DNA of 64,000 nucleotides, taken from Escherichia phage EcWhh-1. This document shows, piece after piece, positions 13,680 to 28,030 of this stretch (position 1 is the first letter of the stretch; each line of letters starts with the position of its first letter). The notes beneath the pieces are model-generated. The model was not told the origin of the DNA and searched no databases. It saw only the letters and a program-made list of their open reading frames with translations. The stretch is taken from the sequence record MH791409.1; one strand, given 5' to 3'. The position numbers and the translations under genes are program-made.

Positions 13680-13979
13680 TTAGAAAGAACCAGAACCTTT
13701 AATTGTGTTCTGACGACCTTTATTTTCTAATTCAGAGTGGTCGATTTCATATGCTTGTGCTACGCCAAAGGCCTTTTTAACTTTAGCTAAAGAACCTTTA
13801 GATGTAACAATATTAAAAGTATTACCTTTGGTAAAATCAACCAAATCGACTTGTACACCCTGTTTACCAAGGCTTGCTACAATAGCGTCAACATATTCTT
13901 GGTCTAAAGTGCCTTGGACTCCAATTTGAAATGCTTTAGGGGCTTTGGCTTCTGTAATAAATTCTTGATAAGTTTTCAT
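13680..13979 (-). CDS. internal protein with capsid targeting sequence (MKTYQEFITEA)
   Basis: N-terminal 10-aa CTS as in T4 IPI/IPII/IPIII, cleaved after Glu by prohead protease gp21. Confidence 0.75.
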   Translation of the reverse strand: MKTYQEFITEAKAPKAFQIGVQGTLDQEYVDAIVASLGKQGVQVDLVDFTKGNTFNIVTSKGSLAKVKKAFGVAQAYEIDHSELENKGRQNTIKGSGSF

Positions 13980-14021
13980 ATTATTCCTTAAGTTGATAGA
14001 AGTATTCTATCACGGATTTAA

Positions 14022-14438
14022 TTAAGCGTAAATAGCCTTACCATAATGTTTGTACCAGGTAGGGCGCTGTGCAATTTTTTCGTCTAAACGGGCTTGTGAA
14101 ATAGCGATAGAAGCTTCGTGAGGAACATAATCACCACGGAATTCCTGAGGAATATCACTAATGTCCTGGACCGTAGTATCCTTGATATTAAAACCACGTT
14201 TTAAACATTCGGCTATAAGCTCAATTTGTCGCTTACGTAAAAATTCAAGCTTATCGTAAAAGAATGTAACATGGCCTGTGCCAAGGATAAAAGTAGGACT
14301 GATTTTAAAATCACGAACACGTTTACCGTTAGCAACATGCTTACGAACTGCACCGAAAACACGTGGTAATTCACGATATTCAGCCATTAAGTGTTGGTCA
14401 GCCAATTCAGATACTAAGGTAAGGTTGATACGAGTCAT
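14022..14438 (-). CDS. denV: endonuclease V, pyrimidine-dimer DNA glycosylase
   Basis: Near-identical to recalled T4 DenV ([29 protein letters not shown]...). Confidence 0.95.
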
Positions 14439-14452
14439 TTTTTAATCTCCTG

Positions 14453-14495
14453 TAGTTGATAGGTCTATAGTATCATGCCTACAGGAGAAGTAAAC
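14453..14495 (-). promoter_or_regulatory. early promoter element
   Basis: GATAGGTCTATAGTATCAT plus AGTAAAC; inverted repeat CCTGTAG/CTACAGG. Confidence 0.55.
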
Positions 14496-14894
14496 TTATT
14501 TGTAAGTTTTCATCCAATTCTTAAACAAAGCTGCGACGTCTTTCTCTTTAACGTTCAATTTAACGTCCAGCATTTTGCCACCAGCGGCACGTGTCTGACG
14601 AATCTTAGCCGTACCGGTTTCGCCATTCCACTCAACATAATACTGTCCGGTGTTCATAGCGATACCATCGCCATAGTCTTCGTTCTTAGAAGTAGTGAAT
14701 GCTAACTTCATGGTCTTAGAGACACGGGCCTGCATGCCTGTCTGCAGAGCGTTACGAACGCGAATAACCTGAGGAGTGGCCTGGGTAAGGTTCTCATTCA
14801 GTTCTTCAGTGAACTCTTCGGATTCAAACATCGCCAAAAGTTCTTTAGATGCAGGAATTACATTCTCTGCGATAAATTCATTATAAGTTTTCAT
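14496..14894 (-). CDS. internal protein with capsid targeting sequence ([10 protein letters not shown])
   Basis: CTS at N-terminus; between denV and e, as T4 ipII/ipIII are. Confidence 0.75.
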
Positions 14895-15375
14895 ATGCTT
14901 TCCAAGTACCTGTTTTAAATGTAGAAATCACGCGCTTAGCACGATTAGGAGTTTGTCTATACCAACGAGATTGAGCCAGGTTAACTGCCGCATCGTCCCA
15001 ACGTTTCTGTTGGAGCATACGTAAAGAGTTAGTGAACCCTGCTACGCCTGCTTCACCCATTTGGAAGACCATGTTAATTAAAGCACAACGACGAACTTCG
15101 TCCAGTACATCATAAACAGGTTTCAATTTAGGATTACGCAGAATAGCTCTACGAGCATTTTCAACCGATCGGTTAAAGAGTTGCTCAGCTTCAGCCATAG
15201 TAATACGACCGTTGCAAACTCGACCCATAAGCTTATCAAGTTCAGCGCGAGCAACATCTTTAGATGGGTTCTTGGTAATCAACTGGCCAATGCCAATAGT
15301 CCAATAACCTTCGGTGTCTTTATAAAGATTTAAATCAAGACCTTCGTCTTGACGTAACATATCAAAAATATCCAT
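14881..15375 (-). CDS. e: endolysin (T4 lysozyme)
   Basis: 164 aa, strong similarity to recalled T4 lysozyme ([13 protein letters not shown]...[13 protein letters not shown]...). Confidence 0.95.
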
Positions 15376-15405
15376 AATACCTCCTGAGTATAGGAGGTAT
15401 TTATA

Positions 15406-15855
15406 TCAAAAGAGCGAATCTAAAACCTTAAACATCGACGGACCCATGACATATTCCCATTGAGGACGTTTAATCAAGGCGAACGCATCGAATTCAGGAA
15501 CCGTGCGACCATCAGGGAACGTATGGTAAGCGGTACATTTGCAATCCTTGAACTGCTCGTGTTCCACAGGCACAGTATATAAGAACAGATGTAGATTCTT
15601 ATTGCTTGAATATTTGAACTCACCTAGGTCTTTCAGGAACGCAGGATCGTATGCTGTGAATCCGATCTCTTCTTCGGTTTCACGCATTGCCGCTTGAATA
15701 GGCTCTTCGCCCGGTTCGACATGGCCTTTAGGAATGTCCCATTTATGACGCATGTTCTCTGGATTACGAGAGCCTGTTACACGACCCATAACTAGTTCTT
15801 TATCAACGGTCATGAATAAAATACCGGCAGATAATTCTTTCGCTTTCTTACTCAT
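15406..15855 (-). CDS. nudE: Nudix hydrolase
   Basis: Nudix box GHVEPGEEPIQAAMRETEEEIGF; table ORF extends to 15930, ATG at ~15855 fits T4 NudE length. Confidence 0.8.
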   Translation of the reverse strand: MSKKAKELSAGILFMTVDKELVMGRVTGSRNPENMRHKWDIPKGHVEPGEEPIQAAMRETEEEIGFTAYDPAFLKDLGEFKYSSNKNLHLFLYTVPVEHEQFKDCKCTAYHTFPDGRTVPEFDAFALIKRPQWEYVMGPSMFKVLDSLF

Positions 15856-16084
15856 CGTCTCGTTCCCATGATTGTTTAAAGATATCTCGTATAATAATTT
15901 CAACACATGTTTCTGTTGACGGACTTTCACTATCAGATATTTGGACCATATAATCAGAAATAGGTCGGAACATATCCAAGTCGCTTTCTAAATCTTCTTT
16001 GATTTTCTCTTCTGATGTTCCGGTGTCATAGGAATACAGATAAGAATCACATGACTCGGATTTAATATAAATTGCAATACTCAT
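15848..16084 (-). CDS. hypothetical small acidic protein
   Basis: ORF in operon. Confidence 0.4.
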   Translation of the reverse strand: MSIAIYIKSESCDSYLYSYDTGTSEEKIKEDLESDLDMFRPISDYMVQISDSESPSTETCVEIIIRDIFKQSWERDDE

Positions 16085-16668
16085 TTACGGCATTCCTCAA
16101 TAAAGGAGTTCAATGTATTTTTCTTGGTGTTATCATCATATACCTTTTTAACTTTAGAAATACGAAAAGGTACTTCGATAACCGAGGTCCATAAAAATGA
16201 CGCAATAAGACCTGAGATAGCCGCAGACATCGCTGAAGCAAATACACAAATAGGCAGGTCATTATCTGTTTTCAGGAAAAACCAAAGGAGTGGAAAAAAT
16301 AATATTCCCATCCAAACATAGAACCTAGAACTCACTAATTTGTCATATTCGTCACTCCATGCACGAAAGCCGTATTTTTTGCTATAACAAATCAATGGGT
16401 CGGGTGTCTGTTCTTTGAGTGGTTCTGGTTGCCAACCGTTTACGATATAGCCCATTTTATATTCCTCAATTAAAAGCCGTTTCATTTCAGCAGTACAACC
16501 GGACCAATCTATCGTACTAGCTGGAATTCCTTCATCGCCATCATCAATATTTCGCCAAGACTTTTTAATAACCATATTCTCACCACTTGGGATAATAATT
16601 CCAGCATTTTCCGACCGACGGATGAAGTTTGCATCAATACCCATACACCCAGGTTCATAAAGGGCCAT
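16081..16668 (-). CDS. membrane protein with C-terminal LNSFIEECRK tail
   Basis: Two hydrophobic helices; C-terminal motif shared with 20925..21314 and 21265..21807. Confidence 0.5.
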   Translation of the reverse strand: MALYEPGCMGIDANFIRRSENAGIIIPSGENMVIKKSWRNIDDGDEGIPASTIDWSGCTAEMKRLLIEEYKMGYIVNGWQPEPLKEQTPDPLICYSKKYGFRAWSDEYDKLVSSRFYVWMGILFFPLLWFFLKTDNDLPICVFASAMSAAISGLIASFLWTSVIEVPFRISKVKKVYDDNTKKNTLNSFIEECRK

Positions 16669-26990: not shown

Positions 26991-27187
26991 TATTCACCTT
27001 TAGAGATTTTATCCATAACGAAAGAGATTGAACCAATTAAGAATGCCACTACTAAAGAGATTGTATTCTCGGAAGTTGTAAGCAAATCCAACATGAATCC
27101 TGCAAACATACTAAAGCCAAAAGCAGTAACGGCGGTCAGTGCAGTAACATTTCTAATTAATTCACAACGTTTCATTTTATTCTCCAA
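26990..27187 (-). CDS. small membrane protein, 65 aa
   Basis: Hydrophobic; early promoter element upstream. Confidence 0.45.
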   Translation of the reverse strand: MENKMKRCELIRNVTALTAVTAFGFSMFAGFMLDLLTTSENTISLVVAFLIGSISFVMDKISKGE

Positions 27188-27199
27188 TCACTCATTTGT

Positions 27200-27242
27200 T
27201 TTGATAGGGCTATAGTATCATCACTAAAGCCCATTGTAAACA
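27200..27242 (-). promoter_or_regulatory. early promoter element
   Basis: GATAGGGCTATAGTATCAT plus TGTAAACA. Confidence 0.55.
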
Positions 27243-27243
27243 A

Positions 27244-27516
27244 TTATTTTAAATAAATTGCATACTTTTTATAACCAGCCGTCTCGTGGCGCAACCCTTT
27301 TTCATTAGCAAAACGTTCAATATTGTTAATTTGATTCTGGTCAAGTTCTGAAGTATCAAATACAAAAAAGTTTCGCTTATTGCCTAAAGTTACATGATTA
27401 GTCAAATCAATGTTATAGAGATGATTTATATCATCAATCATAGTCTTAACAGATTTGTTAATTTTTACTTCCTCATTAAGAATAGATTCAGCGATAAATT
27501 CTTGATAAGTTTTCAT
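27244..27516 (-). CDS. internal protein with capsid targeting sequence (MKTYQEFIAE)
   Basis: CTS at N-terminus. Confidence 0.7.
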   Translation of the reverse strand: MKTYQEFIAESILNEEVKINKSVKTMIDDINHLYNIDLTNHVTLGNKRNFFVFDTSELDQNQINNIERFANEKGLRHETAGYKKYAIYLK

Positions 27517-27517
27517 T

Positions 27518-27742
27518 TTATTCTGCGCCAGCGGCTTTCAAAAGTTTTTTAAGATTGGCTGTACCTTGAGCAGAAAACGTGACCTTGCCATCTTTTTCAC
27601 CGATACTCCCGGTCAATTTAGCGAGCTTATCACTAGGGACTTTTTTAAAATCAGCCAATGTACCGTCAAAGGTTTTTGTAACAACCGGCAGTTGGTCTTC
27701 GTGTTTTTTAGCTTCTGTAATAAATTCTTGATAAGTTTTCAT
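27518..27742 (-). CDS. internal protein with capsid targeting sequence (MKTYQEFITEA)
   Basis: CTS begins at internal ATG (table ORF starts 4 codons earlier at 27754). Confidence 0.7.
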   Translation of the reverse strand: MKTYQEFITEAKKHEDQLPVVTKTFDGTLADFKKVPSDKLAKLTGSIGEKDGKVTFSAQGTANLKKLLKAAGAE

Positions 27743-27767
27743 TTTGATTTCCATGTGGTTGGTTTGT

Positions 27768-27809
27768 TTTGATAGGCCTATAGTATCATGTCTATAGACC
27801 TTGTAAACA
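27768..27809 (-). promoter_or_regulatory. early promoter element
   Basis: GATAGGCCTATAGTATCAT plus TGTAAACA. Confidence 0.55.
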
Positions 27810-27820
27810 CCTTTTTTAAA

Positions 27821-28030
27821 TTATTTTAGCCATGAAGAATTTTCAGAGACCCAGCTATCTATATCTGATTGAGGGCCGAAGAAGTAGGCAACCCCATTAG
27901 ATAACTCTCCTGAAAGCCAATTTATACCTTTCAGGCTTTCTTTAAATTCTTCAGGAGTACAAGAAACCTCTATTGCCACCGAAGAGGCGGATTCCATTGC
28001 TTCTGTTAAGAATTCGCTGTAGGTTTTCAT
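27821..28030 (-). CDS. internal protein with capsid targeting sequence ([11 protein letters not shown])
   Basis: CTS at N-terminus; at T4 ipI position upstream of 57B. Confidence 0.7.

Follow-up and report, generated by a model that had tools for sequence, protein, structure and literature searches.

Six open reading frames (ORFs) that begin with the capsid targeting sequence (CTS) of T4-type internal proteins (IPs) are found in a 64,000-nucleotide (nt) stretch of Escherichia phage EcWhh-1 DNA (record MH791409.1), which was analyzed as a whole and is referred to here as the window. All six are on the minus strand and open with MKTY(Q/N/S)EF(I/L)xE, and their start codons are located at 13979, 14894, 23529, 27516, 27742, and 28030. 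The earlier note on this DNA had listed them by positions that are their stop-codon ends, and the shared N-terminal 10-mer that it described is real. Three of the genes belong to the named families Ip7, Ip9, and Ip8, whereas the unnamed genes at 14496-14894, 22912-23529, and 27821-28030 are given the working names W2, W3, and W6. The closest records to positions 13000-29500 in a megablast search were Dhakavirus phages, and identity was 95.6% for IME281, across 91% of the query, and 93.6% for JS10. The window, with a G+C content of 39.8%, is that of a Dhakavirus, a JS98/JS10/IME281-like relative of T4 and a T4-like coliphage of the Straboviridae. Its gene order matches T4 through vs.8, denV, e (lysozyme), nudE, e.2 to e.6, the tRNA genes, trna.2-4, 57B, 57A, gene 1, and gene 3, and the late region further on encodes gp20, gp68, gp21, gp22, gp23, and gp24. 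Five of the six CTS genes occupy the two IP loci of T4, namely the ipII/ipIII site between denV and e and the ipI site between trna.4 and 57B.

The degenerate DNA pattern ATGAAAACNTAYNNNGARTTYHTNNNNGAR, searched with up to two mismatches, matched exactly these six sites in 64 kb and none in 100 dinucleotide-preserving shuffles, and a looser six-frame protein search of the window revealed no additional credible copy of the tag. Residues Y4, F7, I/L8, and E10 are kept at the extreme N-terminus of all six proteins. In T4 IPIII, suppressor mutagenesis showed that targeting depends mostly on residues 4 and 7, and processing on residues 8 and 10 (reviewed in PMC9026906). The first ten residues of IPIII are enough for packaging (review of Black's work, PMC9026906), and the CTS alone packages foreign proteins in T4 (PMC9026906). 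The prohead protease gp21 cleaves after L/I-X-E, and this motif is present in all six proteins, in which residues 8-10 read, in genome order, ITE, IAE, LNE, IAE, ITE, and LTE.

The 30-nt tag segments vary synonymously (Thr ACT/ACC, Tyr TAT/TAC, Phe TTT/TTC, Glu GAA/GAG, and Ile/Leu ATT/ATC/TTG/TTA), and this variation falls at exactly the positions shown to be important in T4. The DNA upstream of the six tags is unrelated among them, and within each family the tag is conserved across genera while the remaining protein diverges. Because the codons differ synonymously and the flanking DNA is unrelated, the tags are not a recently duplicated DNA segment. The earlier note had named a duplicated 5' DNA segment as a finding that would contradict its reading; such a segment without function is contradicted by these two observations and by the conservation of the tag within each family. 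In a related explanation, the common 5' segment serves only for recombination or translation initiation, as a conserved linker that allows cassette shuffling and secures expression, and some of the products are ordinary early proteins of the cytoplasm that undergo no packaging or cleavage. It is favored by the early-type promoters that alone stand directly upstream of Ip7, Ip8, and Ip9, by the 30-nt conserved block, which could act as a recombination site, by the end of W2 (...WMKTYK-stop, repeat family D4), which looks like a remnant of a CTS start, and by the occurrence of the same N-terminal motif at the head of very many unrelated ORFs in metagenomic viral contigs. However, conservation is at the amino-acid level, with synonymous changes at the positions that matter in T4, and diverged homologues keep an aromatic residue at position 4, F7, I/L/V at position 8, and E10 while other positions change. 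An early promoter of the same type directly precedes the T4 ip genes, whose products are nevertheless packaged, and the cognate protease and core are encoded in the window. This explanation is therefore considered very unlikely.

The gene for gp21, the prohead core serine protease and the enzyme expected to remove the tags, is located at 57955-58590 on the plus strand and matches PF03420 (Peptidase_S77) at 1.1e-103. It is followed on the same strand by the gene for gp22, the prohead scaffolding core protein (58621-59436, PF25623 (T4_CASP), 2.4e-90), which contains many L/I-x-E sites and forms the core to which the tag is thought to bind. The capsid proteins gp23 and gp24 (59458-62714, plus strand) both match Pfam Gp23 and carry candidate gp21 sites near their N-termini. 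These are GSFLTE↓AEIGG at residue 63 of gp23 and MAKINELLRE↓STTT in gp24 (arrows mark predicted cuts), and they stand at the positions of the T4 cleavage sites. The window also encodes gp20.

Beyond the CTS, pairwise BLASTP detected no similarity among the six mature parts or between them and T4 IPI, IPII, and IPIII, and no pair was better than E = 0.1. The diversity described in the earlier note is thus confirmed, and the comparison with T4 ipI, ipII, and ipIII that it proposed gives a shared tag and no detectable similarity in the mature parts. Its parallel with T4 holds for IPII and IPIII, which begin with MKTYQEFIAE, identical to the tag of Ip9 here, and carry the same protease motif. It does not hold for T4 IPI, which has a diverged, longer propeptide (MKTFKEFTST...ITE↓A) and not the same 10-mer. 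Pfam, PADLOC, and PDB sequence searches with the six proteins gave nothing above threshold. T4 and EcWhh-1 also share the two genomic positions (by denV/e and by 57B) and the early-type promoter upstream, and in both the proteins are small and mostly basic. They differ in their mature parts and in that the targets of T4 Ip1-3, three GmrSD variants, are known.

The Ip7-family internal head protein gene (13680-13979, minus strand) is located downstream of denV and encodes 99 amino acids (aa) beginning MKTYQEFITE↓AK, with a predicted mature form of 89 aa and an isoelectric point (pI) of 9.0. Its product matches PHROG 2667, 'internal head protein', at 5e-43, is 94.9% identical to that of the gene annotated ip7 in VR7, and has homologues in 283 phage records, RB69 included. 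Directly upstream, the promoter scan found an early-type promoter, TTTACG-17-TAGAAT, whose -10 element is covered by a stem-loop (14004-14032, minus strand); its hairpin GATAGAA/TTCTATC has z = -2.2. The Ip8-family internal virion protein gene (27518-27742, minus strand) encodes 74 aa beginning MKTYQEFITE↓AK. Its product matches PHROG 8765, 'internal virion protein', at 4e-27 and is 87.8% identical to that of VR5 ip8, which is described in the VR5 record as 'similar to Ip8 of RB15'. The ATG at 27754, chosen as the start by the ORF lister, was rejected. It has no Shine-Dalgarno sequence of its own, lies inside the Shine-Dalgarno region of the MKTY start, and is a Thr codon in phage AnYang, and relatives annotate a 225-nt gene; for these reasons, the MKTY start is taken as the real one. 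The Ip9-family internal head protein gene (27244-27516, minus strand) starts 1 nt after the Ip8 stop codon and encodes 90 aa beginning MKTYQEFIAE↓S. Its product matches PHROG 7673, 'internal head protein', at 2e-56 and is 94.4% identical to that of the gene annotated ip9 in VR5. These three are simply the known genes Ip7, Ip8, and Ip9 in another isolate. They are direct orthologues of those in the RB15, VR7, and VR5 records of T-even relatives, with the same Ip8-Ip9 order next to 57B and no difference of substance, and their names follow Repoila et al. 1994.

W2 (14496-14894, minus strand) encodes 132 aa between e and denV, with a 14-nt overlap between its start and the end of e. The predicted cut at the end of the tag is before N (↓N). 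The product matches PHROG 15461, whose function is given as unknown, and has 49 related phage records, labeled 'hypothetical' in every one among the matches listed. The family is rare, with 7 hits among 1.84 billion representative proteins. In its tag, M1, K2, T3, Y4, E6, F7, I8, and E10 are invariant, and a second L-N-E site is found at residues 32-34, where L32 and E34 are invariant and N33 almost always conserved. The stretch from residue 11 to residue 30 varies and is missing from distant members, which suggests a dispensable spacer that would be freed by a second cut. Late transcripts of W2 can come from a late promoter located upstream of e, TATAAATA at 15405-15398. The AlphaFold2 model of W2, built from a shallow alignment, is weak (predicted local distance difference test, pLDDT, 57.0) and matches only generic small alpha/beta proteins. 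Two weak matches were taken as chance: a single-sequence match to the small domain of M.HhaI (E = 0.011), which vanished with the family profile, and an equally weak flagellin match of the family profile (E = 0.016).

The C-terminus of W2 (...KNWMKTYK-stop, 14496-14525, minus strand) is conserved in the family, and the last 33 nt of the gene (repeat family D4) resemble a ribosome-binding site followed by the first codons of a CTS gene. This end may be an old recombination scar. A metagenomic relative of W2, P0035 (194 aa), has a CTS-like start (MKSFDQYIME) and an extra N-terminal segment of about 90 residues, followed by the W2 domain after VELTE↓S. The extra segment resembles another CTS family by eye, and P0035 may be a precursor that the protease splits into two cargo proteins.

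W3 (22912-23529, minus strand) encodes a basic protein of 205 aa (pI 9.6) that begins MKTYNEFLNE↓SVLNE↓A. It consists of a small helical N-domain, a Pro/Ala/Lys-rich linker at residues 74-113, and a helical C-domain. The linker described in the earlier note is real: these 40 residues are 72% P+A+K, include 10 lysines, and are predicted to be disordered. The richness of the linker in lysine makes a DNA-associated role plausible for this protein. The product matches PHROG 2280, whose function is given as unknown, and has homologues in 132 phage records, again 'hypothetical' in every one among the matches listed. The homologues examined in three other genera share 30-65% overall identity and keep the tag determinants, with the starts MYTFNEFLAE in Mosigvirus, MLQYNEFLKE in Tegunavirus, and MLNFKEFIAE in Karamvirus. 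An extra conserved site, L13-N-E15, follows the tag. E15 and A16 are nearly invariant in the family, and two distant members that lack the first FLNE stretch in the alignment still keep I/L-x-E↓A at the second site. Conservation therefore points to a tag followed by a second, better conserved cleavage site, SVLNE↓A. The AlphaFold2 model, also from a shallow alignment, has a pLDDT of 62.5 overall and about 85 for residues 20-72, with a less confident C-domain. A Foldseek search against PDB and BFVD found no structural analogue of W3, only its own family.

The position of W3 differs from that of the other five genes. The e.6 region lies on one side of it and the tRNA genes on the other, and the nearest IP locus is 3.7 kb away. 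IP genes have been stated to be confined to two loci (Arbiol et al. 2010, PMC2839356), and W3 is an exception to that statement. Placement in an IP locus is a positional habit of the IP family rather than a mechanistic requirement. A GC-rich hairpin followed by a late promoter is located upstream of W3 (23558-23600, minus strand), with a perfect TATAAATA at 23565-23558, 36 nt from the gene, and the hairpin folds at -15.3 kcal/mol (z = -3.6). The hairpin belongs to an exact 27-nt direct repeat (family D12) at 23567-23593 and 24190-24216, each copy followed by TATAAATA, and the second copy precedes the adjacent late cassette, that of the neighboring DUF7338 gene. The order of hairpin, TATAAATA, and CTS also precedes the W3 homologues examined in three other genera. 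The terminator scan found a terminator-like hairpin just after the W3 stop codon (22881-22894, minus strand). W3 is a separate late-promoter cassette that is found in several genera.

These properties of W3 bear on an explanation in which the CTS proteins are packaged but have a mainly structural or physical role in the head, such as charge neutralization, core assembly, head shape, or packaging and ejection. This role is most plausible for W3, which is basic, carries 10 lysines in its linker, is close to T4 IPIII in mature size (195 versus 183 residues), and is transcribed from its own late promoter, like virion genes, with conservation in at least four genera. The IPIII orthologue of JS10, JS98, VR5, and AnYang is missing from the window. 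Head assembly is aberrant in T4 mutants that lack IPIII or all three IPs, and lysines of the IPs make contact with the phosphates of the DNA (PMC9026906). On the other hand, W3 is dispensable, as it is absent from JS10 and VR5, and cassette-type gain and loss is typical of accessory host-range genes. T4 IPIII is itself a GmrSD inhibitor, and structural and anti-defense roles are not exclusive. A mainly structural role is rather unlikely on this evidence.

W6 (27821-28030, minus strand) encodes 69 aa, and its start codon overlaps the stop codon of 57B/acb1 (ATGA). The predicted cut is before AM (↓AM), giving a mature form of 59 aa that is acidic, with a pI of 4.1. The product matches PHROG 23867, whose function is given as unknown, and 28 records contain homologues. 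In JS98 and JS10, the gene is unannotated and begins with GTG (VKSYKEFLTE). M1, K2, E6, F7, E10, and A11 are invariant in the family, while Y or F occurs at position 4 and L, V, or I at position 8. The immediate upstream neighbor, at 28027-28482 on the minus strand, encodes gp57B, which is Acb1, a phosphodiesterase directed against the cyclic-oligonucleotide-based antiphage signaling system (CBASS). It matches Pfam PF23474 at 1.5e-58; therefore, the ipI-type locus abuts a known anti-defense gene. The same protein is labeled 'RNA ligase' in RefSeq-derived phage records.

It is highly improbable that one or more of W2, W3, and W6 are decaying remnants of IP cassettes that are not expressed. Such decay would be in keeping with their 'hypothetical' or unannotated status in public records and with the very short length of W6 and its GTG start in JS98 and JS10. 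However, each of the three ORFs is intact and has a Shine-Dalgarno-like sequence. Conservation stands at 90-100% inside the genus and at 30-85% between genera, where indel lengths are multiples of three and core residues do not vary.

The CTS genes are associated with repeated promoter elements. There are five copies of a repeat block of approximately 48-90 nt that includes GTTTACA, a stem-loop, and TACTAT. One copy is at 17608-17655, and the other four, described next, are all on the minus strand. The copy at 14456-14503 (family D3, which has five copies) is located between W2 and denV and has a weak hairpin (z = -0.7), and the copy at 22813-22860 (families D1 and D3; TTTACA-16-TACTAT) is downstream of W3, with z = +0.9. 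The copies at 27769-27816 and 27201-27248 (both families D1 and D3) bracket the Ip8-Ip9 pair. The first, upstream of the pair, was also found by the promoter scan (GTTTACA...TACTAT) and has z = -3.3, and the second, on the downstream side, has z = -3.0. In four of the five places, the block abuts a CTS gene. Three copies fold with z between -3.0 and -3.8, and two fold no better than shuffles. The same kind of early promoter element is found directly upstream of T4 ipI, ipII, and ipIII. Region-wide counts of sigma-70 promoters and terminators were not above those of shuffles (42 versus 43 and 12 versus 11); therefore, the promoter calls rest on position, repetition, and likeness to the upstream regions of the T4 ip genes.

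A similar arrangement is known from the promoter-early stem-loop (PeSL) cassettes of RB49 and phi1 and from analogous elements at the IP loci of T-even phages (Arbiol et al. 2010, PMC2839356), which share the early promoter with stem-loop repeats and the cassette-like presence and absence. The promoter and stem-loop arrangement at the IP loci is attributed there to Repoila et al. 1994 and read as a substrate for cassette shuffling (PMC2839356). EcWhh-1 differs in that two of its five block copies lack a good hairpin and W3 uses the GC hairpin with the late promoter TATAAATA. Comparison with five sister Dhakaviruses showed that the flanking genes are nearly all present, mostly at 93-100% identity, while the set of CTS genes differs from phage to phage. 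VR5 lacks W2, W3, and W6, JS10 lacks W3, and AnYang lacks W6, and Ip8 and Ip9 are replaced by a different CTS gene of 97 aa in JS10 and JS98. Orthologues of ipII and ipIII, present in some sister phages, are in turn missing from the window; an IPIII orthologue is present in JS10, JS98, VR5, and AnYang, and the JS10 copy is 86% identical to T4 IPIII. This pattern is consistent with gain and loss of CTS genes as cassettes. The compared regions of the five Dhakaviruses contain 4 to 8 CTS genes per phage, and with T4 included there are 11 CTS families, so six such genes are ordinary for a Dhakavirus. The novelty implied by the earlier note was overstated on this point, as more than three such genes is normal and the polymorphism of CTS proteins has been described since Repoila et al. 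1994, according to the papers that cite it.

All sequence features expected of an IP were found in the six proteins, except for genomic position in the case of W3. The reading of these genes as CTS internal proteins, which the earlier note had proposed, is supported by the tag determinants, by gp21 and gp22 in the same window, by the location of five of the six genes at the T4 loci, and by the ip7, ip8, and ip9 annotations of relatives. By analogy with T4, the 10-residue CTS of each precursor would bind the gp22-based scaffolding core during prohead assembly, and gp21 would then cut after Glu10 at the L/I-x-E motif. The second conserved site would probably be cut next, at Glu34 in W2 and Glu15 in W3. 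The mature proteins of 6-22 kDa would stay in the head with the DNA and be injected into the next host, where at least some of them may neutralize host nucleases or other first-response defenses, as T4 Ip1-3 do with GmrSD enzymes. It is likely that the six genes encode T4-type internal proteins and that at least some of these act on host nucleases or first-response defenses at DNA entry; we infer packaging, cleavage, and anti-defense function from T4.

Several reports on T4 and its relatives bear on the functional part of this reading. Ip1 inhibits the GmrSD enzyme of strain CT596, and T4 needs IPIII to infect ECOR17. T4 Ip1, Ip2, and Ip3 each block a distinct variant of GmrSD, a type IV nuclease (Silas et al. 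2025, PMC12373910), and the anti-defense suggestion of the earlier note fits this finding. The acb1 gene, directed against CBASS, adjoins the IP genes. In a related Klebsiella Jiaodavirus, mass spectrometry of virions has detected proteins annotated as internal virion proteins. The same route is taken by T4 Alt and by the propeptide-bearing ejection proteins of phiKZ- and SPN3US-like phages, which are procapsid cargo trimmed by the prohead protease and delivered with the DNA, so that they act ahead of phage gene expression (PMC9026906).

A number of points weigh against an anti-defense internal protein for each of the six. The mature proteins have no homology to Ip1, Ip2, or Ip3 in pairwise BLASTP, and ten further ip genes tested against a GmrSD panel gave no new inhibitory pair (Silas et al., PMC12373910); because of both, the anti-restriction role is not simply transferable. 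Dhakaviruses have been suggested from comparative genomics to carry a 5-hydroxycytosine arabinosylation cluster, and not the glucosylated 5-hydroxymethylcytosine of T4 (2026, PMC13326640). With arabinosylated 5-hydroxycytosine, the relevant host enzymes may differ from those that attack T4 DNA. The predicted mature forms of W6 (acidic) and Ip9 (neutral) are unlike the basic IPs of T4, and an obvious late promoter was found only for W3 and, through the e promoter, for W2. The structure predictions are weak (pLDDT 57-62) and gave no informative fold match. The literature search found no virion proteome of a Dhakavirus. A more specific version, in which the W3 family is a third class of T4-type IP, a self-contained late cassette of at least Dhakavirus, Mosigvirus, Tegunavirus, and Karamvirus with a two-site propeptide and a histone-tail-like linker that enters the host on the DNA, and W2, W3, and W6 belong to an injected counter-defense set suited to hosts that attack arabinosylated and not glucosylated DNA, is possible but doubtful.

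The CTS concept is textbook T4 biology, and the finding is correct but largely explained by it. What the window adds is modest: three unlabeled families, candidate double cleavage sites, and a late cassette outside the IP loci. The known IP targets are limited to those of Ip1-3, and the window contributes six candidate cargo proteins, three of which were missed by annotation and one of which is out of locus. Injected IPs act before phage gene expression and so help to decide whether a given wild strain is infected, which is relevant to host-range prediction and to the choice of therapy phages. DarA and DarB of phage P1 are likewise head-internal, injected anti-restriction cargo that acts before phage gene expression. 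Genes of this kind would be found systematically by a simple search for the N-terminal pattern. The value lies in a candidate list and in improved annotation, not in a new mechanism.

An exact-match scan of IMG/VR for the CTS DNA pattern found at least 120 stretches, against a rough chance expectation of about 1. The 136 ORFs that start at the listed matches fell into at least about 70 unrelated BLAST clusters. The literature quotes 'more than 30 IP variants' (PMC2839356), far fewer than this number of clusters. One CTS-headed cluster, MKTYREFIAE↓SGDWWHPDP..., has members at 2775-3602 of contig L082 (plus strand) and 9581-10288 of contig L105 (minus strand) and six further members. The L082 member, the only one scanned against Pfam, contains an S-adenosylmethionine (SAM) lyase domain (PF23780, 3.6e-14). 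SAM lyase is an anti-restriction activity in phage T3, and the proteins of this cluster may be SAM lyases that are injected. Contig L105 additionally carries genes for T4-type clamp, clamp loader, and CobS proteins and is therefore assigned to a T4-like phage. The same scan found proteins of 836 aa that start with MKTYIEFLKE and contain SNF2-helicase and N6/N4 DNA methylase domains, at 2592-5102 of contig L025 (minus strand) and, as copies of the same length, in L069, L095, and L120. Their resemblance to the CTS may be coincidental.

Two further features of the window were observed between the IP loci. A run of small ORFs at 19686-20928 (minus strand) has similar C-termini (...GGWVSSSSEC, ...GAWVSSSAMC, ...GSWVSSSYEC, ...FWFSSSMSC, and ...WYPSSC), and the DNA at their junctions is repeated (families D5 and D6); this looks like a small paralogous gene family. 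At 24453-25294 (minus strand), the only tRNA genes are tRNA-Arg (24453-24527) and tRNA-Met (25218-25294). An ORF of 223 aa (24490-25161) lies between them, overlaps the end of tRNA-Arg, and has a weak, sub-threshold match to an endonuclease I-like protein. JS98 and JS10 have a tRNA-Asn between tRNA-Arg and tRNA-Met, and in AnYang a homing endonuclease is annotated in a comparable place.

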